A DNA stretch of 64,000 nucleotides from Escherichia coli (GTDB taxonomy: Bacteria > Pseudomonadota > Gammaproteobacteria > Enterobacterales > Enterobacteriaceae). The stretch lies in NCBI RefSeq assembly GCF_050920415.1, contig NZ_CP169309.1; one strand, written 5' to 3'. A model generated the notes under the pieces. It was not told where the DNA came from. It was given only the letters and a program-made list of their open reading frames with translations, and did no database searches. The position numbers were made by a program, and so were the translations under genes. Positions 1 to 19,214 of this stretch are shown here, piece by piece (positions within the stretch are counted from its first letter, which is position 1; each line of letters starts with the position of its first letter).

Positions 1-1219
1 CAATGAAGCGATAGCCTTCGATGAATTCCCAACCAGCGCTGGTTTGCCAGGTTCCATGACGACCAAACTGTGAGTTATCGTCGCTGCGTGCTGCGCCTTC
101 AAAGGTAAAATCGCCGACTTGTTGCAGCCCGGTCAGATAGATGCCGGTATTACGTTGATCATATCCATCCTCAACATAACCTGTACCCGGCGTCGTAGTC
201 TGTTTCTGCCAGTCGACACCCGCACCAATACTACCGTGACCAACGATGACATTGTTTGCCCACTGGACGGTGTATTGCTTCATCTCATCGAGCGTCGCCG
301 ACGAATCATAACGACCATAATGCGGATCGTAGTTGTAATCTTTGCTATGGCTATAGCTGGTAATGAGTTGTGATTTAATCAGTTCGCCGTTATAGCGCAG
401 CCCGGCGTCCCAACTTTGGCTATAGAGTTTACGGGTATCGAGCAACGGTGAGCCGGGAGAATAATATGCGTCATAATTGGTACGGTTATCATAGCCATAG
501 CCGCGCACAAAACCGCTCCAGACATCAGTAAAGTTATGCTCCAGCGCGCCATAAAGCGTTTTACTTAAAAAACCATCGTTATCTGGCTGAGCTTGCGTTC
601 CGGTATTACCATAGGCGACAACATCATAACCATGAGTATGGGCATAATCGCCCAACAGCGTTACCCGTGTCTTATCTCCCAGTTGTTGCTGTGTAGAAAC
701 ATCATAGTTCTGATAGCTATTGCTTCCCCACCCTGCTGAAATTTCCGTTCCGGGTTGATCGCGCGTCGTGATGATATTCACGACCCCACCTATTGCATCG
801 GAACCATAGACGGCGGAGCGCGGCCCACGGATATATTCAACACGCTGGACAAGCGCAATAGGGAACTGGCTAAGGTCGGCAGAACCACTCACCCCCGCCA
901 GATTCAGGCGGACGCCATCAATTAATACCAGCACATGACTGGCATTTGTACCGCGAATAAAAATAGATGAGAGCTGACCTGAACCGCCGTTTTGGGTGAT
1001 ATCGACACCCGGAAGACGGCGCAGCACATCATTGACCGAGGTCGACTGCCAGCGGTCGATATCCTGACGCGTCACAACGGTGGTTGGTGCAAGCACAGTG
1101 CTGCGCGGCTGTTCAAAACGGTTAGCAGTAACGACGAGAGTATCCGGGCTGGTATCCTGTGCCCAAGCGGAAAAGGCTGTGACAGAACACGCCGTCAGCA
1201 GCGAAGCTTTTTTAATCAT
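1..1219 (-). CDS. btuB: Vitamin B12/cobalamin TonB-dependent outer membrane receptor BtuB, 5' part only (gene continues past the window start)
   Basis: Minus-strand translation from ATG at 1219 gives [37 protein letters not shown] and continues in frame to position 1 (..[33 protein letters not shown]). Absent from the ORF track because there is no stop in the window. Confidence 0.93.
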
Positions 1220-1460
1220 TGTAAAGCATCCACAATAGAAGAAGGATGCCGCAGGCTTCATCAATATTACGCGATGATGAGAACCAGATGCGACGTTAGC
1301 CGGCAGGTCTTCGGGCTTGGAGGGGTATATAAAATACTAAGAGATGATGACTTCCCACCGGATGGCAGTGTCCGCATAACGCAATCATCGCACCTTTCCT
1401 TACCGCTGCGCGTCAGCTCCAGATTTGCACTGGATTCCCTATTAACTCACAGGACCGGCG
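1220..1460 (-). promoter_or_regulatory. btuB 5' leader containing the adenosylcobalamin (B12) riboswitch
   Basis: Roughly 240 nt untranslated leader directly upstream of the btuB ATG on the minus strand; the sequence matches my recollection of the btuB leader (established knowledge: btuB is controlled by a cobalamin riboswitch in its long leader). The 173 aa plus-strand ORF 992..1513 lies over it and is not believed to be coding. The 5' boundary is approximate. Confidence 0.8.
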
Positions 1461-1587
1461 AGTGGATGCTACAGGTTGTAACAAGTTGCTGTCCAGACGT
1501 AGCTCACAAATAGGAATACATCAAGATCTGGACATCTGATGAGCAATCCCTACAATCGCCGCGTACATTTCATTTTCAGGATACATC

Positions 1588-2688
1588 ATGACCCCCGAAC
1601 ACCTTCCAACAGAACAGTATGAAGCGCAGTTAGCCGAAAAAGTGGTACGTTTGCAAAGTATGATGGCGCCGTTTTCTGACCTGGTTCCGGAAGTGTTTCG
1701 CTCGCCGGTCAGTCATTACCGGATGCGTGCGGAGTTCCGCATCTGGCACGATGGCGATGACCTGTACCACATTATTTTTGATCAACAAACCAAAAGCCGC
1801 ATCCGTGTAGATAGCTTCCCCGCCGCCAGTGAACTTATCAACCAGTTGATGACGGCGATGATTACGGGTGTGCGTAATAATCCCGTTCTGCGCCACAAGC
1901 TATTCCAGATTGATTACCTCACCACGCTGAGCAATCAGGCGGTGGTTTCCCTGCTGTACCATAAAAAGCTGGATGACGAATGGCGTCAGCAGGCGGAAGC
2001 TTTGCGCGATGCGTTGCGCGCACAAAATTTAAATGTGCATCTGATTGGTCGGGCAACGAAAACCAAAATCGCGCTGGATCAAGATTACATCGACGAACGT
2101 CTGCCGGTCGCAGGGAAAGAGATGATCTACCGTCAGGTAGAAAACAGCTTTACCCAGCCGAACGCGGCGATGAATATTCAGATGCTGGAATGGGCGCTGG
2201 ACGTCACCAAAGGCTCAAAAGGCGATTTACTGGAGCTGTACTGCGGCAACGGTAACTTCTCATTAGCCCTGGCGCGCAATTTTGATCGGGTATTAGCCAC
2301 CGAAATCGCCAAGCCTTCGGTCGCTGCCGCGCAATACAACATTGCCGCTAACCATATTGATAACGTCCAAATTATTCGTATGGCGGCAGAAGAATTTACT
2401 CAGGCGATGAATGGTGTGCGCGAGTTTAATCGCCTGCAAGGGATCGACTTGAAGAGTTATCAGTGCGAAACCATTTTTGTCGACCCACCGCGCAGCGGTC
2501 TGGACAGTGAAACCGAGAAAATGGTGCAGGCGTATCCACGTATTCTGTATATCTCCTGCAATCCGGAAACGTTATGCAAGAATCTGGAAACATTAAGCCA
2601 GACGCACAAGGTTGAACGTCTGGCTCTGTTTGATCAGTTCCCCTACACGCACCATATGGAGTGCGGCGTATTACTGACCGCGAAGTAA
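1588..2688 (+). CDS. trmA: tRNA (uracil54-C5)-methyltransferase
   Basis: 366 aa [32 protein letters not shown]..., with the SAM-dependent methyltransferase C-terminal region; recognised as TrmA. Confidence 0.95.
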
Positions 2689-2693
2689 AATCT

Positions 2694-2719
2694 ATGCCGG
2701 ATGCGCCAGCATCCGGCAT
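2694..2719. terminator. Hairpin between convergent trmA and yijD, likely a bidirectional terminator / REP-like palindrome
   Basis: Inverted repeat gccggatgc gccagc atccggc immediately after the trmA stop. Confidence 0.5.
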
Positions 2720-2727
2720 GATACCGA

Positions 2728-3087
2728 TTACTCAGCAACTTCCTGCTTACGGTTACGCATCTTCGCGCCAATCCAGAACACCATAATGACGGACAGTACT
2801 GCCGGGAAGAAGTTAGAGCCGATATCCGGATATTCCGCACGAACTACCGTGCTGTACAGCAGTACGCCGAGAATAAAACAAGCAGCAGCCAGACCCGGCA
2901 AGCCTACCGGCATAGTGCGATTAAGATAACGTTGATGCAGGCAGTAAACTGTCAGCACCAGGGAAATAATCGGGAATACAGAAAATGGCACAATGGAGCT
3001 AAACAGCGCTGCGAAAGTACCATTAATCGATAAGCCAGCAACTAACGCCAGCAGCAGCGTACCTCTATCTTGATTTGCTTGTTTCAT
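2728..3087 (-). CDS. yijD: Inner membrane protein YijD (DUF1422)
   Basis: 119 aa hydrophobic [28 protein letters not shown]...; its start overlaps the fabR stop (TAATG), suggesting translational coupling. Confidence 0.88.
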
Positions 3088-3734
3088 TACTCGTCCTTCA
3101 CATTTCCCGGAATAATTGCGGTTTTCTCTTGTTCACGGCGATACCAGTAATAAGCCCCTTTCGAAATCATTCGCAGTTGCAGTACCAGTCGCTCTTCTAA
3201 TTGCCGACGTTGTTCGACGCCGACGTCCAACGCCTCGGCACCCGCACTGAAGACAATCGTCACCATGGCTTCGGCTTGCGCTTCAGTAAACGCACGCGGC
3301 ATATGGTTTTCGAGTTCCAGATAGTCCGCAAGTTCCGCAATGAAGTGCTGAATTTCACGCGCAACGGCGGCACGAAACGCAGCGGAGGTGCCGGAGCGTT
3401 CCCGCAATAATAACCGGAAGGCGTTAGGATTATTACCGATGAACTCCATAAATGTGGAGACCGAGGTGCGGATCACACTCCCACCTTTGGCGATACGCTG
3501 ACGCGCCTGGCGCATGAGTTGGCGCAGCATTAAACCGCTCTCATCAACCATGGTCAGACCGAGTTCGTCTACGTCGCGAAAATGCCGATAAAAAGAGGTG
3601 GGAGCAATGCCCGCTTCACGCGCCACTTCACGCAAACTCAGGCTGGCGAAGCTGCGTTCAGCACTTAATTGGCTAAATGCGGCTTCCACCAACGAACGGC
3701 GGGTTTTTTCTTTTTGTTGCGCTCTTACGCCCAT
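3087..3734 (-). CDS. fabR: TetR-family repressor of unsaturated fatty acid biosynthesis FabR
   Basis: ORF track gives 3087..3830; the conserved N-terminus [19 protein letters not shown] (TetR HTH) begins at 3734. An alternative annotated start, MFILWYSAS, would be at 3791. Confidence 0.9.
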
Positions 3735-4068
3735 CACGATGTCTGAATCCTTGCCAAAAGTACTGCTGGCACTATACCAGAGAATGAACATACTGGATTG
3801 CTCCAGTGTTGTGAATGAACCGTAACGCAATAAAACATATTTACTGCAATTCTTTGGCCGGTTCTTTTACGAACATCGGAAACCTGCCGCTTAAACGGTG
3901 AGTATTGGCGATAAAAATCCAATAAAACGTTCAAGGCAAAAGTAAGAAACAGACAAAGCAAAGGCCGCTCACGATATAGCCAGATAAATGACGGGGATCA
4001 ATTGGCTTACCCGCGATAAAATGTTACCATTCTGTTGCTTTTATGTATAAGAACAGGTAAGCCCTACC

Positions 4069-5469
4069 ATGCCACATTCCTACGATTACGATGCCATAGT
4101 AATAGGTTCCGGCCCCGGCGGCGAAGGCGCTGCAATGGGCCTGGTTAAGCAAGGTGCGCGCGTCGCAGTTATCGAGCGTTATCAAAATGTTGGCGGCGGT
4201 TGCACCCACTGGGGCACCATCCCGTCGAAAGCTCTCCGTCACGCCGTCAGCCGCATTATAGAATTCAATCAAAACCCACTTTACAGCGACCATTCGCGAC
4301 TGCTCCGCTCTTCTTTTGCCGATATCCTTAACCATGCCGATAACGTGATTAATCAACAAACGCGCATGCGTCAGGGATTTTACGAACGTAATCACTGTGA
4401 AATATTGCAGGGGAACGCTCGCTTTGTTGACGAGCATACGTTGGCGCTGGATTGCCCGGACGGCAGCGTCGAAACACTAACCGCTGAAAAATTTGTTATT
4501 GCCTGTGGTTCTCGCCCTTATCATCCAACAGATGTTGATTTCACCCATCCACGCATTTACGACAGCGACTCAATTCTTAGCATGCACCACGAACCGCGCC
4601 ATGTACTTATCTATGGTGCTGGAGTGATCGGCTGTGAATATGCGTCGATCTTCCGCGGTATGGATGTAAAAGTGGATCTGATCAACACCCGCGATCGTCT
4701 GCTGGCGTTTCTCGATCAGGAGATGTCAGACTCTCTCTCCTATCACTTCTGGAACAGTGGCGTAGTGATTCGTCACAACGAAGAGTACGAAAAGATCGAA
4801 GGCTGTGACGACGGTGTGATTATGCATCTGAAGTCGGGCAAAAAGCTGAAAGCCGACTGTCTTCTCTATGCCAACGGTCGTACCGGTAATACCGATTCGC
4901 TGGCGTTACAGAACATTGGGCTGGAAACTGACAGTCGTGGACAGCTGAAGGTCAACAGCATGTATCAGACCGCACAGCCGCACGTTTACGCGGTGGGCGA
5001 CGTGATTGGTTATCCGAGCCTGGCGTCGGCAGCCTATGACCAGGGGCGCATTGCCGCGCAGGCGCTGGTGAAAGGTGAAGCCACCGCACATCTGATTGAA
5101 GATATCCCTACCGGCATTTACACCATTCCGGAAATCAGCTCTGTAGGCAAAACCGAACAGCAGCTGACCGCGATGAAAGTGCCGTATGAAGTGGGCCGCG
5201 CCCAGTTTAAACATCTGGCACGTGCACAAATCGTTGGCATGAACGTGGGTACGCTGAAAATTTTGTTCCATCGGGAAACAAAAGAGATTCTGGGCATTCA
5301 CTGCTTTGGCGAACGCGCTGCCGAGATTATCCATATCGGGCAGGCGATAATGGAACAGAAAGGTGGCGGCAACACTATTGAGTACTTCGTCAACACCACC
5401 TTTAACTACCCGACGATGGCGGAAGCCTATCGGGTAGCCGCGTTAAACGGTTTAAACCGCCTGTTTTAA
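4069..5469 (+). CDS. sthA: Soluble pyridine nucleotide transhydrogenase
   Basis: 466 aa; N-terminal FAD-binding motif [12 protein letters not shown]; recognised as SthA/UdhA. Its 3' end overlaps the convergent oxyR 3' end. Confidence 0.95.
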
Positions 5470-6369
5470 CACTTTATCGAAATGGCCATCCATTCTTGCG
5501 CGGATGGCCTCTGCCAGCTGCTCATAGCGGCTGCGCAGCGGTGAGCCCGGACGATAAACCAGGCCAATAGTGCGGCGTGGTTCCGGCTTAATACACGGCA
5601 AATAAACAACCCCATCGCGTTTGCGCTCCGGCGGCACAGCCAGTGCAGGCAGTAAAGTGATCCCGCTACCTGCCGCCACCATGTTGCGCAGAGTTTCCAG
5701 GCTGGTCGCGCGGAAGTGTGTATCTTCATCCGCCCCGGCTTCAAAGCAGAAACCCATTGCCTGATCGCGCAAACAGTGACCATCTTCCAGCATCAGCAGT
5801 TTTTCCCCTGCCAGATCGGCCATCGGTACGCATTCGCGGTTCGCCCACGGGTGATCTTCATAGATAGCCAGCAACATTGGCTCATCAAACAACGGCACTT
5901 CAATGAATGCTTCGCTCTCTTTCACCAGCGCGAGGATCACGCAATCGAGTTTGCCGCTGTCCAGTTGCGCCAGTAACTGGTGGGTCTGTGCTTCATGCAG
6001 ATACATTTCCAGCTTTGGAAAGGTCTGGTGCAGCATCGGAATAATATGCGGTAACAGGTAAGGCCCAACCGTGGGAATCAAACCAATATGCAGCGGCCCG
6101 GACATTGTCTCGCCCTGCTGGCTTGCCATCTCTTTAAGGACTTTCACCTCACGCAGCACGGTACGCGCCTGATCCACCAGCAGCATTCCCGCCTGGGTGA
6201 ACAACACTTTACGGCTGGTCCGCTCCAGCAACATCACGCCCAGCTCATCTTCCAGCTTACGAATTTGCCCGCTAAGCGTCGGCTGGCTAACGTGGCAGGA
6301 ATCTGCCGCACGCCGAAAATGACGGTGTTCAGCCAATGCCACCAGGTACTCAAGATCACGAATATTCAT
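5452..6369 (-). CDS. oxyR: LysR-family hydrogen peroxide-inducible regulator OxyR
   Basis: Conserved start [45 protein letters not shown] (305 aa); the ORF track's longer ORF starts 10 codons upstream. Confidence 0.95.
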
Positions 6370-6379
6370 TATCCATCCT

Positions 6380-6464
6380 CCATCGCCACGATAGTTCATG
6401 GCGATAGGTAGAATAGCAATGAACGATTATCCCTATCAAGCATTCTGACTGATAATTGCTCACA
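6380..6464. promoter_or_regulatory. Divergent oxyR/oxyS promoter region with the OxyR binding site
   Basis: Intergenic region between the oxyR start (6369) and the oxyS 5' end (about 6465). Established knowledge: OxyR autoregulates and activates oxyS from this region. The site itself was not delimited. Confidence 0.6.
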
Positions 6465-6581
6465 GAAACGGAGCGGCACCTCTTTTAACCCTTGAAGTCA
6501 CTGCCCGTTTCGAGAGTTTCTCAACTCGAATAACTAAAGCCAACGTGAACTTTTGCGGATCTCCAGGATCCGCTTTTTTTT
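6465..6581 (+). ncRNA. oxyS: OxyS small regulatory RNA (oxidative-stress sRNA)
   Basis: Sequence gaaacggagcggcacctcttttaacccttgaagtcactgcccgtttcgagagtttctcaactcgaataactaaagccaacgtgaacttttgcggatctccaggatccgc followed by a T-run matches OxyS as I recall it; divergent from oxyR and ending in an intrinsic terminator. Confidence 0.9.
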
Positions 6582-6620
6582 ATTCTACAGGCCCACAGCA
6601 AGAGAGCCTGATAGTAACAG

Positions 6621-7904
6621 TTACTCAATCCGATCTTTGACAATAAAGAAGTAACACAGCGCCCCGGTGAACGTCACACAGGCCGCGATAACCAGCGCCA
6701 GATTAAACGAGTGCGTGGTATCCACTACCCAACCGGTTACGATCGGAGCAAAGGAAGCAAAAACAAAACTGCCAAAGTTTTGAATCCCGGCGATGGAAGC
6801 CACTTTTGTTTCTGACACCATCACCTGCACCAGTCCCCATGCAGATGTTCCCGCGAAATGCACGCAGAACAGCGCCATTGAGATAAACGCTACAGCCTGG
6901 GCTGGCGAGGAGGATTGCACGACCAGCAACGTGCCTAATGCCGACATCATCAAACCGCAAACAATAGCCGTTTTACGCGTCTTCGCCAGGTCGTAGCCTT
7001 TTTTCGCCAGCCGATCGACAACAATACCGTTAACCCACATCCCGACCGCCGCCGCGAGGAAAGGAATCGCCGCCACCCAACCGGTTTTCGCCAGACTGAA
7101 GCCTTGCTCGGCTTGTAAATAACCGGGTAACCACGCGATGTAGAGCCAACCGGTATAATTGACGCCAGAGAAACCTAAAATCATCCCCCAGGTTGTCCGA
7201 TGCTTAAACAGCGCCAGCCACTCGCTAAATTGTAATTGTGGACGCGGTTTAACCGGCGCGGAGAGATAGGTCCGTTCTTCGTCGGTCAGGACAAACTGCG
7301 CCCGGTTGCGATACCACGCGTACCAACAGATCCCAACCAGAATCCCCGCCACGCCGATGATGACGAACATTGCCCGCCAGCCCCATGCCAGCTGCATCAA
7401 TACAAGAGCAGGAGGCGCAATAGCCTGACCGATAACGGTAGATGAGTTAAAAATCCCCAGCGCCGTGCCGCGTTCTTTTTGCGCATACCAGTCGGTGATC
7501 GACTTTACTCCCGCAGGCATAAATGGCGCTTCGCCAATACCCAGACCGATACGCATTAAAATAAAGTGGCTAAAAGAATTAACCATTCCTGTTAATGCCT
7601 GCATTAATGACCAGAATATTAAGCCTGCGCCTAAAACTATTCGTGGGCCAAAGCGGTCTAGCAAAATACCGGAAGGGAGTTGTGAAAAACCATAAGACAG
7701 AGAAAATGCAGAAAGCAAAACGCCAAATTCTGTCGCCGATAATCCTAACTCGCCACGAATCGCTTCGCCTGCCACGCTCAATGACGAACGGTCGAGGAAA
7801 TTAACGATCCCCGCCATAAATAATAAAACCAGCGTTACTGTCTGAATACGACGAATCCGTTGCGGTTTATTACCCGCAACACTGGTTGACACATCAACGT
7901 CCAT
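6621..7904 (-). CDS. MFS transporter, anion:cation symporter (ACS) type, resembling hexuronate/aldonate/galactonate-family sugar-acid permeases
   Basis: 427 aa with about 12 predicted TM segments and MFS signature regions (GIVNFLDRSSLSVAG, LLDRFGPR). Accessory gene between oxyS and argH. Confidence 0.75.
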   Translation of the reverse strand: MDVDVSTSVAGNKPQRIRRIQTVTLVLLFMAGIVNFLDRSSLSVAGEAIRGELGLSATEFGVLLSAFSLSYGFSQLPSGILLDRFGPRIVLGAGLIFWSLMQALTGMVNSFSHFILMRIGLGIGEAPFMPAGVKSITDWYAQKERGTALGIFNSSTVIGQAIAPPALVLMQLAWGWRAMFVIIGVAGILVGICWYAWYRNRAQFVLTDEERTYLSAPVKPRPQLQFSEWLALFKHRTTWGMILGFSGVNYTGWLYIAWLPGYLQAEQGFSLAKTGWVAAIPFLAAAVGMWVNGIVVDRLAKKGYDLAKTRKTAIVCGLMMSALGTLLVVQSSSPAQAVAFISMALFCVHFAGTSAWGLVQVMVSETKVASIAGIQNFGSFVFASFAPIVTGWVVDTTHSFNLALVIAACVTFTGALCYFFIVKDRIE

Positions 7905-7970
7905 TTTTAGCTCCTTGAGCGGAATTAATCGATTTGCTGACTATTCAGAAAATAATTAAGCGAACCGTTA

Positions 7971-9185
7971 TTACCAGTTCCACAATGTGCCATCTTCCAG
8001 TCGTGCGACGGGGAGATACGCCGGGTCATACGGATATTTCGCCGCCAGTTTCTCATCGAAAGAAATACCCAGCCCCGGTTCATCGCCTGGGTGCATATAA
8101 CCTTCATCGAAGCGCCAGCTGTGCGGGAAGACTTCAAGCATTTGTTCGGAATAGCCCATGTACTCCTGAACGCCAAAGTTTGGCACCCAGAGGTCAAAAT
8201 GCAGCGCCGCCGCATGACAAACAGGCGATAAATCTGAAGGGCCATGCGAACCGGTACGTACCTGATAAAGCGATGCAAAATCGGCAATCCGTCGCATCCC
8301 GGTAATGCCGCCTGCATGGGTAATCGTCGTGCGAATATAGTCAATCAGCTGCTCTTCGATTAACTGCTTGCAGTCCCAGATACTGTTAAACACTTCACCG
8401 ACCGCAATCGGCGTCACAGTATGCTGGCGAATCAGACGAAAACATTCCTGGTTCTCGGCAGGCGTCGGATCTTCCATCCAGAACAGGCGGTAATCCTCAA
8501 TGCTCTTCCCAAAGCGCGCCGCTTCGATAGGAGTCAGGCGATGGTGCATGTCATGCAACAGATGTTCGTTAAAACCGAACTTATTACGCACCGCTTCAAA
8601 TAACTTCGGTGTAAAATCGAGATACTTTTCTGAAGACCACAACTGCTCTTCCGGCCACAGGCCTTTGGTTGCCGGTTCATACGCCAGTCCTTTGCCCTTC
8701 GCCAGGCCATAAGTGGTTTGCATACCCGGTACACCGCACTGCACACGAATCGCCTTAAAGCCCATCAGCTGGTGCTTTGCATAGTCTTCAAGGACTTCAT
8801 CAATCGTGCGCCCGGTGGTGTGGCAATAAACCATCACGCCTTCACGAGAAGCCCCACCAAGCAGTTGATACAATGGCATATTTGCCGCTTTGGCTTTGAT
8901 ATCCCACAACGCCATATCAATGGCAGAAATGGCCGACATCGTGACGGGGCCACGTCGCCAGTAAGCACCTTTATAAAAGAATTGCCAGATATCTTCGATA
9001 CGGCTGGCATCGCGGCCAATTAATTGTGGACAAAGATGATCTTTCAGATAAGAAGCGACCGACAATTCGCGACCATTTAATGTGGCATCTCCCAATCCAC
9101 AAAGTCCGCTTGCAGTGGTTATTTTAAGCGTAACGAAATTACGTCTTGGGCAAGTAACAAAAACATCTGCAGCAATAATTTTCAT
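7971..9185 (-). CDS. Enolase-superfamily dehydratase, D-mannonate dehydratase (ManD) / RspA-like
   Basis: Conserved start [40 protein letters not shown] at 9185 with an AGGAG RBS (the ORF track starts 20 codons upstream at 9245). The sequence is typical of the mandelate racemase/muconate lactonizing enzyme family. Sits 66 bp upstream of the MFS gene on the same strand. Confidence 0.75.
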
Positions 9186-9670
9186 TATTGCAATCTCCTG
9201 TGTTGTAAATAGATGCTTCAAACTTAATTTTACGCCTACTACCATACAAGAGAGAAAGAGCGATTATTCAACCGTGATCACATTAAAAATAAAAATTTCC
9301 GCCGAGGAGAAAAAACACCCTCAAAAACCACCTGAATAATTAACCATTATCGTTAAAACAACACGTTAAATAATCACATAACAAACTCCATTAATCATTA
9401 AATATGAGCGCAGCAATAGAAATGAATTATATTCAATTAATTAAAATATGTATTGATTGATGTATTGAAAATATGATTTTCATGGGGAGAGTGAAGGTAA
9501 AGAAGACGCAAGAATAAAAAGGAATATGACAAATAATAGTTCTGGTTGGGCGTTAAATTTAAGGTCACCAGAATGCTGACAAATTTCTGCCTGAGGCAGT
9601 CCGCCTACGTAGTGTCGCTACTTTATAGGCGTGGTAAGCTCCCCATTTTCAGGGGAGCAATATAAACCAA

Positions 9671-11044
9671 TTACCCCAACCGCGCCTGCGCAAAAGCAAT
9701 CGCCTGCGCCACCTGCTGCGGGGAGACGCCGCCTTTTGCCGCACGCTTGTCGAGGCACGATTGCAGCGACAGAATCGGATAGACATCTTCGCCAATCACC
9801 TCGCTGAATTTCTGCAACTCACTGAGCGGCAGTTCTTCCAGCGGTTTGCCCTGACGAATGGCTTCCACCACCGCTTCACCAACAATATGGTGCGCCTCGC
9901 GGAACGGCACACCTTTCGCCACCAGGTAATCCGCCAGTTCAGTGGCGTTCGCATACCCCTGCTGCGCCGCTTCCTGGCAACGTGGGCGTTTCACCTGAAT
10001 CCCGTCCAGCACCAGCGCCGCCATATGCAGGCAGTCCAGCCAGGTATCGAGCGCATCGAACAGACCTTCTTTGTCTTCCTGCATATCTTTGTTATAGGCC
10101 AACGGCAGACCTTTCAGCGTCATCATCATGCCGGTCAACGCGCCCTGAACACGACCGCATTTACCGCGAATCAACTCCAGCGCATCCGGGTTTTTCTTCT
10201 GCGGCATTAATGATGAACCGGAAGTAACACGATCAGAAAGCTCCACAAAACCCGCTTCGCCGGTGTTAAAGAAAATCAGATCTTCGGCAAAACGCGACAA
10301 ATGCACCATACCGATAGCGGCGGCAGATAGCAGTTCCAGCACGTGGTCGCGGTCAGAAACGCTGTCGAGACTGTTACGGGTCGCCGAGGCAAAGCCCAGC
10401 CAGCCTGCTAACTGTTCACGGTCGATTTCATAGGCCGTTCCCGCCAGGGCGCCACAGCCTAGCGGGCTGACATCCAGACGCTTAAGCGCATCCTGCAAAC
10501 GGCTTTCATCACGCGCCAGCATCTCAACATAGGCCAGGCACCAGTGCGCAAACGTCACCGGCTGGGCGCGTTGCAGGTGAGTGTAACCAGGCATTACCGC
10601 GTCCTGATTATTCTGCGCGGTTTCCACCAGCGCCGATTGTAACTGTCGGTTAGCCGTCAGCAACTCGCTAACGGTATCCTTGCACCACAGTTTCAGGTCA
10701 GTCGCTACCTGATCATTACGGCTACGCCCGGTATGCAGTTTTTTGCCTAACTGGCCCACTTTGTCGATCAGTTTGCCTTCCACCCAGCTATGGATATCTT
10801 CGGCGTCGCTTTCAAGAATTTGTTGTGGCCTGGCGCGAACATCTTCCAGCAGCACATTGAGCGCCTCTTCCAGTTGCACCTGTTCTTCTGCGGTTAACAC
10901 GCCTACCGTTACCAGCGCTTTGGACCAGGCCACAGAGCCAACAATATCCTGCTCCGCCAGACGGTAATCAAAGCGCAGTGAGTCGTTGAATTGTTTAAAC
11001 CGTTGATCTGCTGCCTGGGTAAAACGCCCGCCCCAAAGTGCCAT
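9671..11044 (-). CDS. argH: Argininosuccinate lyase
   Basis: 457 aa, [37 protein letters not shown]...; fumarate lyase family signature [12 protein letters not shown]. Confidence 0.96.
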
Positions 11045-11104
11045 AACTCTGTTTCCTTATTTTGAAATTCAATGCCAGAAAGCTACGTCTCTGGCCAACA
11101 AAAC

Positions 11105-11881
11105 TTAAGCTAAAATCCGCGTACCCATCGGCATACCGTTAAACAGTGCCGGAAGCTGTTCCGCATGACGCCAGGAGGCAATATCTACCGGGCGACCCAG
11201 CGTGCGCGCAGCGTCCAGCGCCGCGTTCACTTTCACTATCATGCCGTCAGTAATAATGCCCTGCTCAATCAGTTGTTCTGCTTTCGCTGCGGTCATTTCG
11301 GCAATACGTTGCCCTTTGCCGTCGAGAATACCGCTGACATCAGAGAGCAAAATCAGATCCGCGCCCAGCGTTGCCGCCAGCGCCGTCGCCGCCTGGTCAG
11401 CATTGACGTTCATCAGTTGCCCTTCGTCCGTTACGCCAATGGAGCTGACCACTGGTAGATAACCGTTTTCCAGCAACGTGTTGATAAGCTTAGGCGAACC
11501 TGGCTGCGCCAGTCCAACATGGCCTAACTCTTCATCGAGCTGGGTCACTTTTACGCTGTCGCCGTCACCGAGAAACAAACCTACGGCTGCAATCTGATGT
11601 TTCTTCGCCCATGCCAGCAGGGTTTTATTTGCCGTTCCCGCCAGCGCTCCGGTGATAATGTCTATCTGATCCGCAGGCGTCACCCGCAGGCCGTTTTTCT
11701 TTTTCACCGGCAGATTCAGTCCTTTCATCAGCTCATCCACCACGCAGCCGCCGCCGTGGACAATCACCAGCGGACGCTGATGTGACTCGCGATAATTCAC
11801 CAGGGCGCTAAACAGACGTTCCAGCGCCTCTTCACTATCCAGCAGTACGCCGCCCAGTTTGATAATTAATGGATTCATCAT
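11105..11881 (-). CDS. argB: Acetylglutamate kinase
   Basis: Conserved start [24 protein letters not shown] (258 aa) at 11881; the ORF track starts 11 codons upstream. Confidence 0.95.
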
Positions 11882-11888
11882 TGCACCC

Positions 11889-12893
11889 CTAAATAAGAGA
11901 CTGCGTTTCCGCATAGCCGAAACGAATATTGGCGCACTGTACCGCTTGTGCTGCCGCGCCTTTCAATAAGTTGTCTTCGGTCGCCACAATAATCAGATGT
12001 TCCCCCTGAACGGCAAAACCGATATCGCAGAACGGCAGCCCGACGACATTTTTCAGCGCCGGAACGCCTTTGTCATACAACCGTACCAGCGGTTTATGGG
12101 CATACGCCTGCTGTAACGCTTGCGCGACTTGCGCCTGGTTCACGCCAGGCTTCAGGCGGCAGGTAATGGTTTCGAGAATGCCGCGCGGGAAATTGCCCAG
12201 ATGCGGGGTAAAAATAACGTCAGCACCGAGATGCGTGGCGATCTCCGGCTGGTGGCGATGGGTAAAGACACCATACGGTTGCAGGCTAACTTCACAAAAA
12301 CTATTTGAAATCGCTGCCTTACGTCCTGCTCCGCTCACACCACTGGTGGCGTTGATAACCGGCCACTGATTGAGGTCAAGAAGATCGGCATCAATCAACG
12401 GTTTCAGCGCCAATTGCGCCGCCGTCGGATAACAGCCAGGCACCGCAATTAAGTTCGCTTCTTTTAATTTATGACCGCACCACTCCGCCAGACCGTAAGC
12501 TGCCTGTTCCAACAGTTCCGGGTATTGATGGCTAAAGCCGTAATATTTTTCATAGAAGGTGGCGTCGTTAACACGAAACGCGCCGGAAAGGTCGAACACC
12601 ACACAGCCCGCTTCAAGAAATTGTGGCGCTAAATCGTGACTAACTTCATGGGCAGTAGCAAGAAACACCACGTCCACCCCTGGGCTAAACTCACTGATAT
12701 CCGACATCGGCTGCAACGGCAGATCAACGATGCCTTTTAGCTGCGGATGCAAATCGGAGATTAACTTTCCCGCATCATTGCTTTGCGCTGAAACAGTCAA
12801 AGCGGTTATGTTCATATGCGGATGGCGATTTACATAGGTCACTAGCTCTGCGCCAGCGTAACCGCTGGCACCCACAATCAGCGTATTCAACAT
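11889..12893 (-). CDS. argC: N-acetyl-gamma-glutamyl-phosphate reductase
   Basis: 334 aa, [35 protein letters not shown]... Confidence 0.95.
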
Positions 12894-12983
12894 CGGGGCT
12901 ATTCACCTTCTTATGTCTGGTTGCCTGGTTAAACGTAAAACATTCACCTTACGGCTGGTGGGTTTTATTACGCTCAACGTTAG

Positions 12984-13020
12984 TGTATTTTTATTCACAA
13001 ATACTGCATGAATATTGATA
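12984..13020. promoter_or_regulatory. ArgR operator (two ARG boxes) in the divergent argE/argCBH control region
   Basis: gtgtatttttattcacaa and actgcatgaatattgata, two adjacent 18 bp palindromic ARG-box-like sequences between the argC and argE starts. Confidence 0.75.
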
Positions 13021-13046
13021 CTATCATGACCAGAGGTGTGTCAACA

Positions 13047-14198
13047 ATGAAAAACAAATTACCGCCATTTATCGAGATTTACCGTGCTCTGATTGCCACA
13101 CCTTCAATAAGCGCCACGGAAGAGGCACTCGATCAAAGCAATGCAGATTTAATCACTCTGCTGGCGGACTGGTTTAAAGATTTGGGCTTCAATGTGGAAG
13201 TGCAGCCCGTGCCGGGAACTCGCAACAAATTTAATATGCTGGCAAGTACCGGACAGGGAGCTGGCGGTTTGCTGCTGGCGGGGCATACCGATACGGTGCC
13301 ATTTGATGACGGCCGCTGGACGCGCGATCCGTTTACGCTGACGGAGCATGACGGCAAGCTTTACGGCTTAGGCACCGCCGACATGAAAGGCTTTTTTGCG
13401 TTTATCCTCGATGCACTACGCGATGTCGACGTCACGAAACTGAAAAAACCGCTCTACATTCTGGCGACTGCCGATGAAGAGACCAGTATGGCAGGAGCGC
13501 GTTATTTTGCCGAAACTACCGCCCTGCGCCCGGATTGCGCCATCATTGGCGAACCGACGTCGCTGCAACCGGTACGCGCGCATAAAGGCCATATCTCGAA
13601 CGCCATCCGTATTCAGGGCCAGTCGGGGCACTCCAGCGATCCAGCACGCGGAGTTAACGCGATCGAATTGATGCACGACGCCATCGGGCATATTTTGCAA
13701 TTGCGCGATAATCTGAAAGAACGTTATCACTACGAAGCATTTACCGTGCCATACCCTACGCTCAACCTCGGGCATATTCACGGTGGCGATGCATCTAACC
13801 GTATTTGCGCTTGCTGTGAGTTGCATATGGATATTCGTCCGCTGCCAGGCATGACACTCAATGAACTTAATGGTTTGCTCAACGATGCATTGTCTCCGGT
13901 GAGCGAGCGCTGGCCGGGTCGTCTGACGGTCGACGAGCTGCATCCACCGATTCCTGGCTATGAATGCCCACCGAATCATCAACTGGTTGAAGTGGTTGAG
14001 AAATTGCTCGGAGCAAAGACCGAAGTAGTGAACTACTGTACCGAAGCGCCGTTTATTCAGACGTTATGCCCGACGCTGGTGCTGGGACCTGGCTCAATTA
14101 ATCAGGCTCATCAGCCTGATGAATACCTGGAGACACGGTTTATCAAGCCCACCCGCGAACTGATCACCCAGGTGATTCACCATTTCTGCTGGCATTAA
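13047..14198 (+). CDS. argE: Acetylornithine deacetylase
   Basis: Conserved start [23 protein letters not shown] (383 aa) at 13047; M20 peptidase family. Confidence 0.95.
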
Positions 14199-14201
14199 AA
14201 C

Positions 14202-14251
14202 GTAGGCCAAACAATGTCGGATGCGATGCTTGCGCATCTTATCCGACCTAC
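14202..14251. repeat. REP (repetitive extragenic palindromic) element
   Basis: gtaggccaaacaatgtcggatgcgatgcttgcgcatcttatccgacctac, a palindromic REP-type unit downstream of argE. Confidence 0.7.
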
Positions 14252-14499
14252 ACCTTTGGTGTTACTCAAGGCGATTTTTTAACATTTCCATAAGTTACGC
14301 TTATTTAAAGCGTCGTGAATTTAATGGCGTAAATTCCTGCTATTTATTCGTTTGCTGAAGCGATTTCGCAGCATTTGACGTCATCGCTTTTACGTGGCTT
14401 TATAAAAGACGACGAAAAGCAAAGCCCGAGCATATTCGCGCCAATGCGACGTGAAGGATACAGGGCTATCAAACGATAAGATGGGGTGTCTGGGGTAAT

Positions 14500-17151
14500 A
14501 TGAACGAACAATATTCCGCATTGCGTAGTAATGTCAGTATGCTCGGCAAAGTGCTGGGGGAAACCATCAAGGATGCGTTGGGAGAACACATTCTTGAACG
14601 CGTTGAAACTATCCGTAAGTTGTCCAAATCTTCACGCGCTGGCAATGATGCTAACCGCCAGGAGTTGCTCACCACTTTACAAAATTTGTCGAACGACGAG
14701 CTGCTGCCCGTTGCGCGTGCGTTTAGTCAGTTCCTGAATCTGGCTAACACCGCCGAGCAATACCACAGCATTTCGCCGAAAGGCGAAGCAGCCAGCAATC
14801 CGGAAGTGATCGCCCGCACCCTGCGTAAACTGAAAAACCAGCCGGAACTGAGCGAAGACACCATAAAAAAAGCAGTGGAATCGCTGTCGCTGGAACTGGT
14901 CCTCACGGCTCACCCAACCGAAATTACCCGTCGTACGCTGATCCACAAAATGGTGGAAGTGAACGCCTGCTTAAAACAGCTCGACAACAAAGATATCGCC
15001 GACTACGAACATAACCAGCTGATGCGCCGCCTGCGCCAGTTGATCGCCCAGTCATGGCATACCGATGAAATCCGTAAGCTGCGCCCAAGCCCGGTAGATG
15101 AGGCCAAATGGGGCTTTGCCGTAGTAGAAAACAGCCTGTGGCAAGGCGTACCGAATTACCTGCGCGAACTGAACGAACAACTGGAAGAGAACCTCGGCTA
15201 CAAACTACCCGTCGAATTTGTTCCGGTGCGTTTTACCTCGTGGATGGGCGGCGACCGCGACGGAAACCCGAACGTCACTGCCGATATCACCCGCCACGTC
15301 CTGCTGCTCAGCCGCTGGAAAGCCACCGATCTGTTCCTGAAAGATATTCAAGTTCTGGTTTCTGAACTGTCGATGGTTGAAGCAACTCCGGAACTGCTGG
15401 CGCTGGTCGGCGAAGAAGGTGCCGCAGAACCGTATCGCTATCTGATGAAAAACCTGCGTTCCCGCCTGATGGCGACACAGGCATGGCTGGAAGCGCGCCT
15501 GAAAGGTGAAGAAGTACCAAAACCAGAGGGTCTGCTGACGCAGAACGAAGAACTGTGGGAGCCGCTCTACGCTTGCTACCAGTCCCTTCAGGCGTGTGGC
15601 ATGGGTATTATTGCCAACGGCGATCTGCTCGACACCCTGCGCCGCGTGAAATGTTTCGGTGTACCGCTGGTCCGTATTGATATCCGTCAGGAGAGCACCC
15701 GTCATACCGAAGCGCTGGGCGAACTGACCCGCTACCTCGGCATCGGCGACTACGAAAGCTGGTCAGAGGCCGACAAACAGGCGTTCCTGATCCGCGAACT
15801 GAACTCCAAACGCCCTCTTATGCCGCGTAACTGGCAACCGAGCGCCGAAACGCGCGAAGTACTTGATACCTGTCAGGTAATTGCTGAAGCACCGCAAGGT
15901 TCCATTGCCGCCTACGTGATCTCGATGGCAAAAACGCCGTCCGACGTACTGGCTGTACACCTGCTGCTGAAAGAAGCGGGTATTGGATTTGCGATGCCGG
16001 TTGCACCGCTGTTTGAAACCCTTGATGACCTGAACAACGCCAACGATGTCATGACCCAGTTGCTCAATATCGACTGGTATCGCGGCCTGATTCAGGGCAA
16101 ACAGATGGTGATGATTGGCTATTCCGACTCAGCAAAAGATGCGGGGGTGATGGCGGCTTCCTGGGCGCAATATCAGGCACAGGATGCATTAATCAAAACC
16201 TGCGAAAAAGCGGGTATTGAACTGACGCTGTTCCACGGCCGCGGCGGTTCCATTGGTCGCGGCGGCGCACCTGCCCATGCGGCGCTGCTGTCACAACCGC
16301 CAGGAAGCCTGAAAGGCGGCCTTCGCGTGACCGAACAGGGCGAGATGATCCGCTTTAAATATGGTCTGCCAGAAATCACCGTTAGCAGCCTGTCGCTGTA
16401 CACCGGGGCGATTCTGGAAGCCAACCTGCTGCCACCGCCGGAGCCGAAAGAGAGCTGGCGTCGCATTATGGATGAACTGTCAGTCATCTCCTGCGATCTC
16501 TACCGTGGCTACGTACGTGAAAACAAAGATTTTGTGCCGTACTTCCGCTCCGCTACGCCGGAACAAGAGCTGGGCAAACTGCCGTTGGGTTCACGTCCGG
16601 CGAAACGTCGCCCGACCGGCGGCGTCGAGTCACTGCGCGCCATTCCGTGGATTTTTGCCTGGACACAAAACCGCCTGATGCTCCCCGCCTGGCTGGGTGC
16701 AGGTACGGCGCTGCAAAAAGTGGTCGAAGATGGCAAGCAGAGCGAACTGGAAGCCATGTGCCGCGACTGGCCATTCTTCTCGACGCGTCTCGGCATGCTG
16801 GAGATGGTCTTCGCCAAAGCAGACCTGTGGCTGGCGGAATACTATGATCAACGTCTGGTAGACAAAGCATTGTGGCCGTTAGGTAAAGAGTTACGTAATC
16901 TGCAAGAAGAAGACATCAAAGTGGTGCTGGCGATTGCCAACGATTCTCACCTGATGGCCGATCTGCCGTGGATTGCGGAGTCTATTCAGCTGCGAAATAT
17001 TTACACCGACCCACTGAACGTATTGCAGGCCGAGTTGCTGCACCGCTCCCGCCAGGCAGAAAAAGAAGGCCAGGAACCGGATCCTCGCGTCGAGCAAGCG
17101 TTAATGGTTACTATTGCCGGGATTGCGGCAGGTATGCGTAATACCGGCTAA
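14500..17151 (+). CDS. ppc: Phosphoenolpyruvate carboxylase
   Basis: 883 aa, [43 protein letters not shown]... ending ..GMRNTG. Confidence 0.97.
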
Positions 17152-17166
17152 TCTTCCCCTCCTGCA

Positions 17167-17195
17167 AACCCTCGTGCTTTTGCGCGAGGGTTTTC
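17167..17195 (+). terminator. ppc intrinsic terminator
   Basis: aaccctcgtgcttttgcgcgagggtttt, a GC-rich hairpin followed by a T-run just after the ppc stop. Confidence 0.7.
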
Positions 17196-17332
17196 TGAAA
17201 TACTTCTGTTCTAACACCCTCGTTTTCAATATATTTCTGTCTGCATTTTATTCAAATTCTGGATATCCCTTCAGATATCCTTAAGGAATTGTCGTTACAT
17301 TCGGCGATATTTTTTCAAGACAGGTTCTTACT

Positions 17333-19066
17333 ATGCATTCCACAGAAGTCCAGGCTAAACCTCTTTTTAGCTGGAAAGCCCTGGGTTGGGCACTGCTCTA
17401 CTTTTGGTTTTTCTCTACTCTGCTACAGGCCATTATTTACATCAGTGGTTATAGTGGCACTAACGGCATTCGCGACTCGCTGTTATTCAGTTCGCTGTGG
17501 ATGATCCCGGTATTCCTCTTTCCGAAGCGGATTAAAATTATTGCCGCAGTAATCGGCGTGGTGCTATGGGCGGCCTCTCTGGCGGCGCTGTGCTACTACG
17601 TCATCTACGGTCAGGAGTTCTCGCAGAGCGTTCTGTTTGTGATGTTCGAAACCAACACCAACGAAGCCAGCGAGTATTTAAGCCAGTATTTCAGCCTGAA
17701 AATTGTGCTTATCGCGCTGGCCTATACGGCGGTGGCAGTTCTGCTGTGGACACGCCTGCGCCCGGTCTATATTCCAAAGCCGTGGCGTTATGTTGTCTCT
17801 TTTGCCCTGCTTTATGGCTTGATTCTGCATCCGATCGCCATGAATACGTTTATCAAAAACAAGCCGTTTGAGAAAACGTTGGATAACCTGGCATCGCGTA
17901 TGGAGCCTGCCGCACCGTGGCAATTCCTGACCGGCTATTATCAGTATCGTCAGCAACTAAACTCGCTAACAAAGCTACTGAATGAAAATAATGCCTTGCC
18001 GCCGCTGGCTAATTTCAAAGATGAATCGGGTAACGAACCGCGCACCTTAGTGCTGGTGATTGGCGAGTCGACCCAGCGTGGACGCATGAGTCTGTACGGT
18101 TATCCGCGTGAAACCACGCCGGAGCTGGATGCGCTGCATAAAACCGATCCGAATCTGACCGTGTTTAATAACGTGGTGACGTCTCGTCCGTACACCATTG
18201 AAATCCTGCAACAGGCGCTGACTTTTGCCAATGAAAAGAACCCGGATCTGTATCTGACGCAGCCGTCGCTGATGAACATGATGAAACAGGCGGGTTATAA
18301 AACCTTCTGGATCACCAACCAGCAAACGATGACCGCCCGCAATACCATGCTGACGGTATTTTCGCGCCAGACCGACAAGCAGTACTACATGAACCAGCAA
18401 CGTACGCAGAGTGCGCGTGAATACGACACCAACGTGCTGAAGCCGTTCCAGGAAGTGCTGAATGACCCTGCGCCGAAGAAACTGATCATCGTTCATCTGC
18501 TGGGTACGCATATCAAATACAAATACCGCTACCCGGAAAATCAGGGCAAGTTTGATGGCAATACCGATCATGTTCCGCCGGGACTAAGCGCAGAAGAGCT
18601 GGAGTCATATAACGATTATGATAACGCTAACCTGTATAACGATCATGTGGTTGCCAGCCTGATTAAAGACTTTAAAGCAGCAGACCCGAACGGTTTCCTG
18701 GTTTACTTCTCTGACCACGGTGAAGAGGTTTACGACACGCCGCCGCACAAAACTCAGGGGCGTAATGAGGACAACCCGACGCGTCATATGTACACCATTC
18801 CGTTCCTGCTGTGGACGTCAGAAAAATGGCAAGCGACTCATCCGCGTGATTTCTCGCAGGATGTTGATCGTAAATACAGCCTGGCGGAACTGATCCACAC
18901 CTGGTCAGATTTGGCGGGCTTATCTTACGACGGTTACGATCCAACCCGTTCAGTGGTGAATCCGCAGTTCAAAGAAACTACCCGCTGGATTGGTAACCCG
19001 TACAAGAAAAACGCGCTGATCGATTACGACACTCTGCCGTATGGCGATCAGGTGGGTAATCAGTAA
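17333..19066 (+). CDS. eptC: Phosphoethanolamine transferase (LPS core modification)
   Basis: 577 aa, MHSTEVQAKPLFSWKALGWALLYFWFF...; N-terminal TM helices plus a sulfatase-like periplasmic domain; recognised as EptC/YijP. Confidence 0.93.
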   Translation: MHSTEVQAKPLFSWKALGWALLYFWFFSTLLQAIIYISGYSGTNGIRDSLLFSSLWMIPVFLFPKRIKIIAAVIGVVLWAASLAALCYYVIYGQEFSQSVLFVMFETNTNEASEYLSQYFSLKIVLIALAYTAVAVLLWTRLRPVYIPKPWRYVVSFALLYGLILHPIAMNTFIKNKPFEKTLDNLASRMEPAAPWQFLTGYYQYRQQLNSLTKLLNENNALPPLANFKDESGNEPRTLVLVIGESTQRGRMSLYGYPRETTPELDALHKTDPNLTVFNNVVTSRPYTIEILQQALTFANEKNPDLYLTQPSLMNMMKQAGYKTFWITNQQTMTARNTMLTVFSRQTDKQYYMNQQRTQSAREYDTNVLKPFQEVLNDPAPKKLIIVHLLGTHIKYKYRYPENQGKFDGNTDHVPPGLSAEELESYNDYDNANLYNDHVVASLIKDFKAADPNGFLVYFSDHGEEVYDTPPHKTQGRNEDNPTRHMYTIPFLLWTSEKWQATHPRDFSQDVDRKYSLAELIHTWSDLAGLSYDGYDPTRSVVNPQFKETTRWIGNPYKKNALIDYDTLPYGDQVGNQ

Positions 19067-19214
19067 ATGACCTTTGTATCGCGTCTGGCACTATTTGCCG
19101 GATGCGATACTGGCACAATGTTTACATCGAACTCCCATCAGGCCACACTTTTCAGGTGGCCTTTTTTCATAATGCCAGTTACTGTTTTCCCGTCTATGTA
19201 CCTAAGGGAATAAC

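Follow-up and report, generated by a model that had tools for sequence, protein, structure and literature searches.

Why do some Escherichia coli genomes carry two genes at a site where K-12 has only a short spacer, and what do these genes do? We addressed this question in a 64-kb stretch of E. coli contig NZ_CP169309.1 (assembly GCF_050920415.1), which is referred to here as the window. Between the small RNA gene oxyS and argH, a 3.1-kb segment of the window encodes a permease of the major facilitator superfamily (MFS) and a dehydratase, ManD. Our analysis points, with a probability of about 60%, to an old unit of the rsp regulon that takes up and dehydrates D-mannonate and that was lost or replaced in about two-thirds of E. 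coli. We infer the substrate D-mannonate, the direction of transport and the control of this copy by CRP and RspR from comparisons of protein families, gene neighborhoods and promoter sequences.

The strongest evidence in this analysis comes from the relatives of the permease. Its sister clade, which is the closest outgroup (~70% identity), occurs in Rouxiella, Pectobacterium zantedeschiae, Leminorella grimontii and Providencia stuartii, and in all four the gene is part of a cassette that consists of a divergent GntR/FCD regulator, the MFS gene and uxuA, with no dehydrogenase. The uxuA genes were assigned by TIGR00695 in Rouxiella (644 bits) and by PF03786 in P. zantedeschiae, Leminorella and Providencia. 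UxuA is the canonical D-mannonate dehydratase, and its fold is unrelated to that of ManD. A single MFS lineage thus has one or the other of two non-homologous mannonate dehydratases as its partner, which suggests that the imported compound is D-mannonate and that the ManD partner acts as a mannonate dehydratase in vivo. The preliminary description of this locus, made from the sequence of the window, had called the substrate of the pair an open question; this consistent pairing with enzymes of two unrelated folds leaves it less open.

The permease also connects the pair to the rsp locus. MFS orthologs with 82-89% amino-acid (aa) identity adjoin rspA in the rsp locus of at least nine other genera of the Enterobacteriaceae (Raoultella, Klebsiella, Enterobacter, Pluralibacter, Lelliottia, Atlantibacter, Siccibacter, Cedecea and Kluyvera). 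The gene order of this locus is ynfA / rspA-rspB-ydfJ-ydfI / usp / rspR(ydfH) / ydfG, and the MFS gene is the immediate neighbor of rspA on one side or the other; in Kluyvera, Lelliottia and Siccibacter, rspA comes first and the MFS gene second, as in the window. No MFS ortholog was found in the rsp locus of E. coli or in the rsp cluster of Pectobacterium. ManD groups with the enterobacterial RspA proteins and is about equally distant from all those encoded in rsp loci (91-94% aa identity, ~80% nucleotide (nt) identity, synonymous divergence (dS) ~1.8). In a midpoint-rooted neighbor-joining tree it falls outside all of them, and it has nine clade-specific residues, including K156Q and M161L beside Tyr159. 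Because nucleotide identity is as low as 80% and synonymous sites are saturated, ManD is an old paralog and not a recent duplicate, and by the same comparisons the Escherichia unit as a whole is an old paralog of the rspA-MFS pair and now lies away from the rsp locus. Among the records compared, 'Chryseobacterium sp. 18061' and 'Citrobacter sp. 18056' (L015, L027) have closely similar rsp loci of the Enterobacteriaceae type, and the name Chryseobacterium probably reflects a misassignment or a contamination.

The region upstream of manD provides a further tie to the rsp regulon. A CRP half-site, TGTGA (9282-9278), is followed after 27 nt by CTTGTATGGTAGTAG (9250-9236), which holds a predicted -35 element, TTGTAT (9249-9244), together with the right half-site for RspR. 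The predicted -10 element, TAAGTT (9226-9221), follows at a 17-nt spacing, and the predicted transcription start, C 9215, lies 30 nt before the ATG; all three positions were placed by alignment. In an alignment of 13 rspA and MFS promoters from nine genera, no long block other than TGTGA and CTTGTATGGTAGT is invariant. The combination TGTGA-N27-CTTGTATGGTAGT stands unchanged before rspA, MFS and ydfI genes of the other genera examined as well as before manD in the window, where the distance between TGTGA and the box is the same as in the E. coli rspA promoter, rspAp. The 15-mer CTTGTATGGTAGTAG occurs once in the window, compared with 0.03 matches expected by chance. At rspAp, RspR acts as a repressor, its footprint covers 31 bp centered on ATACnnGTAT, and transcription starts 30 bp upstream of the ATG (Shimada et al., PMC8249747); the conserved box region corresponds to this footprinted operator and the -35 element of rspAp. 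CRP and RspR sites at rspAp were also found in a massively parallel reporter study (bioRxiv 10.1101/2025.05.13.653802).

The CTTGTATGGTAGT box also precedes ydfI-like genes of the mannitol-dehydrogenase family in Raoultella and Lelliottia, and in Shimwellia it precedes the MFS gene, which has no rsp locus around it there and adjoins genes for a mechanosensitive-channel homolog and a taurine-type ABC transporter. These occurrences of the box are at L004 13192-13204, L020 12192-12204, L019 10819-10831 and L021 6900-6912. In strain HCM-28C-2, an IS1A element interrupts the argH-manD interval, upstream of the rsp-type box (L032 3443-4140). About 100 nt before the predicted start in the window, an upstream element, AACGTGTTGTTTTAACGAT (~9300-9345, minus strand), is kept among Escherichia species and recognizable in Citrobacter sp. 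R56 (L025 ~6500-6540); it is absent upstream of E. coli rspA.

The dehydratase itself fits the proposed function. The open reading frame (ORF) of manD extends from 7971 to 9245 on the minus strand, and the start was assigned to the ATG at 9185, 9 nt after an AGGAG ribosome-binding site (RBS). The protein reaches 726 bits with the ManD equivalog model NF043051 (cut-off 550) and 800.6 bits with the subfamily model NF011654 (cut-off 430); with a galactonate dehydratase model it stays at 249 bits, under the cut-off of 311. Its top structure matches, which align end-to-end and gapless, are RspA of E. coli CFT073 (4IL2, 892.9 bits) and a Pectobacterium protein (4E4F, 888.1 bits), and it shares 91.4% aa identity with the protein encoded at the rspA locus of E. 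coli L008. In this gapless alignment the catalytic residues of the ManD subgroup are complete (R147, Y159, D212, H214, E238, E264, H314): the Mg2+ ligands D212, E238 and E264 lie within LLHDMHH, WMEDP and VGEVF, and the dyad and the acid are R147 in AIRVQ, Y159 in TTYG and H214 in DMH. All metal-binding and general-base residues are thus present. The corresponding ligands of N. aromaticivorans ManD, D210/E236/E262, reportedly sit where barrel strands 3, 4 and 5 end, and the subgroup is characterized by a Tyr159-Arg147 dyad as general base and His212 as general acid. By these matches, manD is an RspA paralog and encodes an enolase-superfamily dehydratase of the ManD subgroup.

The best family model of the permease is that of the D-galactonate-transporter subfamily, TIGR00893 (275 bits, below the cut-off of 395), its precomputed Pfam match is PF07690 (MFS_1), and the closest solved structure is that of the H+/D-galactonate symporter DgoT (6E9N, E=4e-57, 197 bits, residues 13-424). 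Three residues of DgoT that are reportedly assigned to proton coupling and carboxylate binding, D46, R47 and E133, are kept as D38, R39 and E125. Judged from these features, the protein, which is intact in the window, appears to be a permease of the anion:cation symporter (ACS) type, and we propose that it is a D-mannonate:H+ symporter. The gene identities given in the preliminary description, an ACS-type MFS permease and a ManD/RspA-like enolase-superfamily dehydratase, are borne out. RefSeq (PGAP) annotates the two genes as 'manD: D-mannonate dehydratase ManD' and 'MFS transporter'. Both are on the same strand, 66 nt apart and each with its own RBS, and no rsp-type promoter box was found in the 66-nt spacer. 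This layout is consistent with co-transcription, as was assumed when the pair was first described as an apparent operon.

According to the mechanism that we propose, the permease would be a proton-coupled organic-anion symporter and import a hexonic acid, most likely D-mannonate. The Mg2+-dependent ManD would abstract the C2 proton via Tyr159/Arg147, and His214 would eliminate the C3 hydroxyl, yielding 2-keto-3-deoxy-D-gluconate (KDG), which KdgK and Eda, encoded elsewhere, would convert into pyruvate and glyceraldehyde-3-phosphate. Transcription of manD and the MFS gene would start from the cAMP-CRP-dependent rspA-type promoter and would be repressed in trans, probably by RspR (YdfH) from the rsp locus. 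The unit would predate E. coli and be selected where it is present, and it would have been lost or replaced in those lineages, including K-12 and O157:H7, that lack it today. KdgK and Eda are core enzymes of E. coli, with KDG as the entry to their pathway, and delivery of the product to them would explain why neither a kinase nor an aldolase is linked to the pair. The preliminary description had pointed out that kinase, aldolase and regulator are all missing. None of them adjoins the module at this locus, but the unit does not appear to be regulator-less in function: its promoter is of the rspA type, and the missing regulator would be accounted for by rspR, which is encoded at the rsp locus.

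How widespread is the unit, and how old? The whole module was found in 1,860 of 5,426 complete E. coli genomes (34%) and the MFS gene in 1,869, whereas 3,553 (65%) have a contiguous empty junction of the K-12 type. K-12 and O157:H7 are empty; CFT073, an O104:H21 strain and strain ST648 are occupied. These strains presumably represent phylogroups A (K-12), E (O157:H7), B2 (CFT073), B1 (O104:H21) and F (ST648). Two MFS allele groups are present, that of the window (at least 99% identity) in ~160 genomes and another one, ~97% identical, in ~1,700. Since rspAB was found in at least 4,909 genomes (at least 90%, near-core), most carriers of the module hold two RspA-type enzymes. One of them is CFT073 (NC_004431.1), the source of the RspA structure 4IL2, which carries manD-MFS besides RspA. 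CFT073 also has an additional two-gene insert between sthA and fabR, encoding an M20 aminoacylase and a citrate-proton symporter (L034 8897-11422), which the window does not have.

Beyond E. coli, a survey of one genome per species detected the MFS gene at 99% aa identity in E. whittamii, Escherichia sp. E1V33 and Escherichia sp. MOD1-EC7003. The order argB-argH-manD-MFS-oxyR-sthA is found in E. whittamii and E1V33; on the shorter contig of MOD1-EC7003, MFS-oxyR-sthA is visible. Compared with the window, manD and the MFS gene of these species have a dS of 0.15-0.37 and a dN/dS (ratio of nonsynonymous to synonymous divergence) of 0.01-0.04 (MFS alone 0.01-0.03), and the flanking genes oxyR and argB have a dS of 0.17-0.32 and a dN/dS of 0.015-0.030. 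Citrobacter sp. R56, a genus-level outgroup with a flank dS of 0.8-1.2, has at the same site the promoter box, an in-frame manD relic of 63 codons that joins residues 1-32 to 371-403, and an MFS gene that is intact and 92% identical.

An alignment with a K-12-like locus (L002) shows that the two layouts diverge exactly at 6582, after the T-run of oxyS, and coincide again from the argH stop codon at 9671. The segment takes the place of a 54-nt oxyS-argH spacer, and the module is absent from the K-12-like genome. Both the borders given in the preliminary description, which are exact to the base, and its statement that oxyS and argH are neighbors in K-12 are thereby confirmed. Homology between the 54-nt spacer and the 3.1-kb segment was not found above chance level, as the alignment score is inside the range of shuffled controls, and the same applies to the spacer in comparison with intergenic regions of other Escherichia. 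As spacer and unit show no detectable homology, the joints are silent on the direction of the event, and gain or loss is unreadable from them. We infer this direction from the comparative data, which favor a module that was present ancestrally and later lost or replaced. As a minimum, these data describe the module as a long-standing presence/absence polymorphism, of which the K-12 state looks like a derived or alternative allele. The description of the pair as 'inserted' thus probably had the direction wrong, given the same site in other Escherichia species, the relic in Citrobacter, a dS like that of the flanks and no signatures of mobility.

Several observations weigh against a D-mannonate unit that is at work in these bacteria. 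UxuA is already present in E. coli, so that a further mannonate dehydratase seems redundant. In vitro, ManD enzymes of the RspA class reportedly dehydrate D-mannonate with low efficiency only, and a physiological role of RspA was reportedly not found in CFT073; this agrees with the remark in the preliminary description on many ManD-subgroup members of low or unknown physiological activity. The RspR palindrome ATACnnGTAT is not complete in the window, where its left half is degenerate (TCTCTTGTAT versus ATACTTGTAT) and its right half intact. The MFS promoters of Raoultella and Enterobacter likewise keep just the right half-site. RspR control of the manD-MFS copy is thus plausible, and it is uncertain because only this half of the palindrome is kept. 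ManD of the window carries two variants, Q140L and G14R (codon 9146-9144), the latter in the otherwise invariant motif CPGRNF, whose G14 is conserved in all 16 other sequences compared. This exact protein is found on 89 contigs, and each of two common alleles on at least 1,000; the enzyme of the G14R/Q140L allele may be impaired. The nearest complete genome, NZ_CP169399.1, which differs from the window by 2 nt across the 15.4 kb compared, has a nonsense change in the MFS gene at window position 7643 (G in the window, A there), and PGAP classifies the gene as a pseudogene. In strain ST648, which belongs to the same allele group (L031, NZ_CP008697.1, 2522-3529), an in-frame deletion of 92 aa leaves an MFS protein of 335 instead of 427 aa that is still annotated as a normal MFS transporter. 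Because of these three kinds of changes, the lineage of the window may be losing the function of the module, although the unit overall is under strong purifying selection. Absence from 65% of the genomes has to be added to this list, and so does the co-occurrence of the permease with RspB and YdfI in rsp loci, where L-gulonate or D-fructuronate might be imported instead.

This co-occurrence would support another acid sugar as substrate. The permease might import L-gulonate or D-fructuronate, from which RspB and YdfI would then make D-mannonate, or ManD might act on D-gluconate or a different acid. The ManD subgroup also takes in gluconate dehydratases and members of no known activity, and the clade-specific residues K156Q and M161L flank the catalytic Tyr159. 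Most genera place the MFS gene in the rsp locus together with the Zn-dehydrogenase gene rspB and the mannitol-dehydrogenase-family gene ydfI, and the route from L-gulonate via D-fructuronate and D-mannonate to KDG has been validated in H. influenzae (PMC5788505) and C. salexigens (cited in PMC5507952). However, the GntR/MFS/uxuA cassettes have no dehydrogenase, so that the substrate imported there must already be D-mannonate. Kluyvera has rspA-MFS-ydfI without rspB, the E. coli module itself is without a dehydrogenase, and ManD passes its equivalog model by a wide margin. We consider a different substrate unlikely.

Could the unit be a relic that has no present function in E. coli and is merely tolerated while it slowly decays, in line with the view of the rsp genes as a 'cryptic pathway'? 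The loss in 65% of the genomes and the damaged copies, namely the nonsense change in NZ_CP169399.1, the 92-aa deletion in ST648, the IS1 element upstream of the unit in HCM-28C-2, the reduction of manD in Citrobacter sp. R56 and G14R in the window, would fit such a decay, as would the low in vitro efficiency and the missing knockout phenotype that are reported for RspA. Yet the dN/dS of both genes across species is as low as that of oxyR and argB, the two main ManD alleles are each unchanged on at least 1,000 contigs, and the promoter box is perfectly kept. The module as a whole is under purifying selection where it is present, and we regard a functionless remnant as quite improbable.

A recent islet, inserted horizontally between oxyS and argH, is very improbable and already largely refuted: absence from K-12 and most E. 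coli genomes, upstream DNA that is AT-rich as is typical of foreign DNA, and the position of ManD outside all rsp-locus RspAs could be cited for it, but no integrase, insertion sequence (IS) element, mobility gene or tRNA was found at the module in the window and no direct or inverted repeats at the segment borders, the coding GC content (47-56%) matches the flanks, the same site is filled in three Escherichia species and a Citrobacter with a dS like the flanks, a donor closer than 87-93% aa identity was not found among 5.8 billion proteins, and the empty allele has its own unrelated 54-nt spacer with no clean excision or insertion joint. Outside Escherichia, the MFS protein has its best relatives at 84-93% identity. 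For ManD, identity is 91-94% to all RspAs from rsp loci, and third codon positions are saturated. An origin from a mobile element was rejected as well, on the absence of border repeats and mobility genes.

The features of the locus are listed in Table 1.

Table 1. Position, strand and basis of assignment of the features at the oxyS-argH site of the window
Feature	Position	Strand	Basis
oxyS small RNA (left flank, outside the module)	6465..6574	+	Rfam RF00035, 139.5 bits
oxyS terminator hairpin (T-run reaches 6581)	6555..6573	+	Terminator scan
Segment replacing the K-12-type spacer	6582..9670	.	Alignment with L002; no flanking repeats
MFS permease, 427 aa	6621..7904	-	ORF
manD-MFS spacer, 66 nt	7905..7970	-	RBS AAGGAG; weak hairpin over manD stop
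manD, 404 aa	7971..9185	-	ORF
rspA-type promoter (predicted)	9215..9282	-	Alignment of 13 sequences
AT-rich upstream region, 32-37% GC, kept among Escherichia species	9283..9637	-	
Hairpin GCTCCCC-N7-GGGGAGC, directly past the argH stop	9638..9658	-	Read from sequence
argH (right flank, outside the module)	9671..11044	-	

On the minus strand, argC-argB-argH are followed by the hairpin, ~350 bp of AT-rich DNA, the promoter-like region, manD and the MFS gene; oxyR and sthA lie beyond oxyS. The spacer between manD and argH amounts to 485 bp and is AT-rich (32-37% GC). The hairpin past argH differs in sequence from the argH terminator of K-12 and has no T-run, so that the terminator scan did not list it; it is the probable end of the argCBH transcript. 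In other Escherichia, REP-like palindromes (repetitive extragenic palindromic elements) are located between argH and the AT-rich region (L010 5158-5330, L011 5184-5330); in the window they are shorter or absent. Homology of the manD-MFS spacer across genera was not found. At the other end, 46 nt separate the end of the MFS gene from the oxyS terminator, which arrives on the opposite strand. Within 6535-6630 the minus strand has hairpins but no U-run, and a canonical intrinsic terminator is absent after the MFS stop codon; read-through would run antisense to oxyS and then enter oxyR in sense direction. The only Rfam RNA elements in window positions 1-20000 are OxyS and the btuB cobalamin riboswitch.

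If the pair is indeed a D-mannonate unit, it might provide the entry point that the 'cryptic' rsp pathway lacks, an idea that we put forward tentatively and whose odds are clearly below even. Carriers would then use D-mannonate, or mannonate derived from L-gulonate, and K-12 could not, as it lacks the unit and its ydfJ is split by the Qin prophage. RspR, which has been classed as a single-target regulator in K-12, would gain a second target, and the second paralog could mask the phenotype of RspA. A study of CFT073 reportedly found no phenotype for RspA, which two paralogs of 91% identity in the same strain could explain. Our main reading gives a gene pair of about one-third of E. coli a concrete, testable function, D-mannonate:H+ symport and dehydration to KDG, and the tie to the long-puzzling 'starvation-sensing' rspA regulon makes the rspA question testable, too. 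Our comparison also flags a second RspA-like enzyme in CFT073, from which RspA was crystallized, and advises against taking the K-12 layout as ancestral reference for the oxyS-argH site. The scope is modest, since accessory carbon-source metabolism of this kind is already well understood: the pair, which databases have annotated before, is a real but fairly ordinary accessory sugar-acid unit of a known kind.

How does this unit compare with known systems? The L-gulonate pathways of C. salexigens and H. influenzae converge on the same step, D-mannonate to KDG, and the rsp locus has matching enzyme types (PMC5788505, PMC5507952); these pathways use TRAP transporters and dehydrogenases, both of which are absent from the window unit. 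DgoT and DgoD likewise combine an ACS-type H+ symporter with an enolase-superfamily dehydratase whose product, a 2-keto-3-deoxy acid, goes on to a kinase and an aldolase, as proposed here, but their relationship to the unit is distant (DgoT 197 bits; dehydratase model 249 versus a cut-off of 311 bits), and the dgo operon has its own kinase, aldolase and regulator. The GntR/MFS/UxuA cassettes of Yersiniaceae, Pectobacteriaceae, Budviciaceae and Morganellaceae have the sister permease directly before a D-mannonate dehydratase and, like the E. coli unit, no linked dehydrogenase, kinase or aldolase; they differ in using UxuA (PF03786, TIGR00695), in placing the transporter first and in the adjacent divergent GntR regulator. 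Two high-efficiency ManDs that match strongly, N. aromaticivorans ManD, the founder of the subgroup (2QJJ, 605 bits), and 3VCN (609 bits), share metal ligands, dyad and histidine acid with the window protein, which by sequence groups, in contrast to these two, with the enterobacterial RspA proteins 4IL2 and 4E4F. This RspA group is reportedly classed as low-efficiency. Closest of all is RspA itself (rspAB, 4IL2), with the same fold, a length of 404 aa, the same catalytic residues and 91% aa identity. The promoters, too, have the same architecture, consisting of TGTGA, the box and a start 30 nt before the ATG (PMC8249747). Unlike rspA, manD of the window is located at argH-oxyS and not at ynfA-rspA-rspB, is followed by an MFS gene and not by rspB, and has a non-conserved left RspR half-site. 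With 80% nt identity, a dS of ~1.8 and nine residues specific to its clade (two beside Tyr159), it stands beside the near-core rspAB (at least 90% of genomes) as an accessory relative that 34% of E. coli carry.

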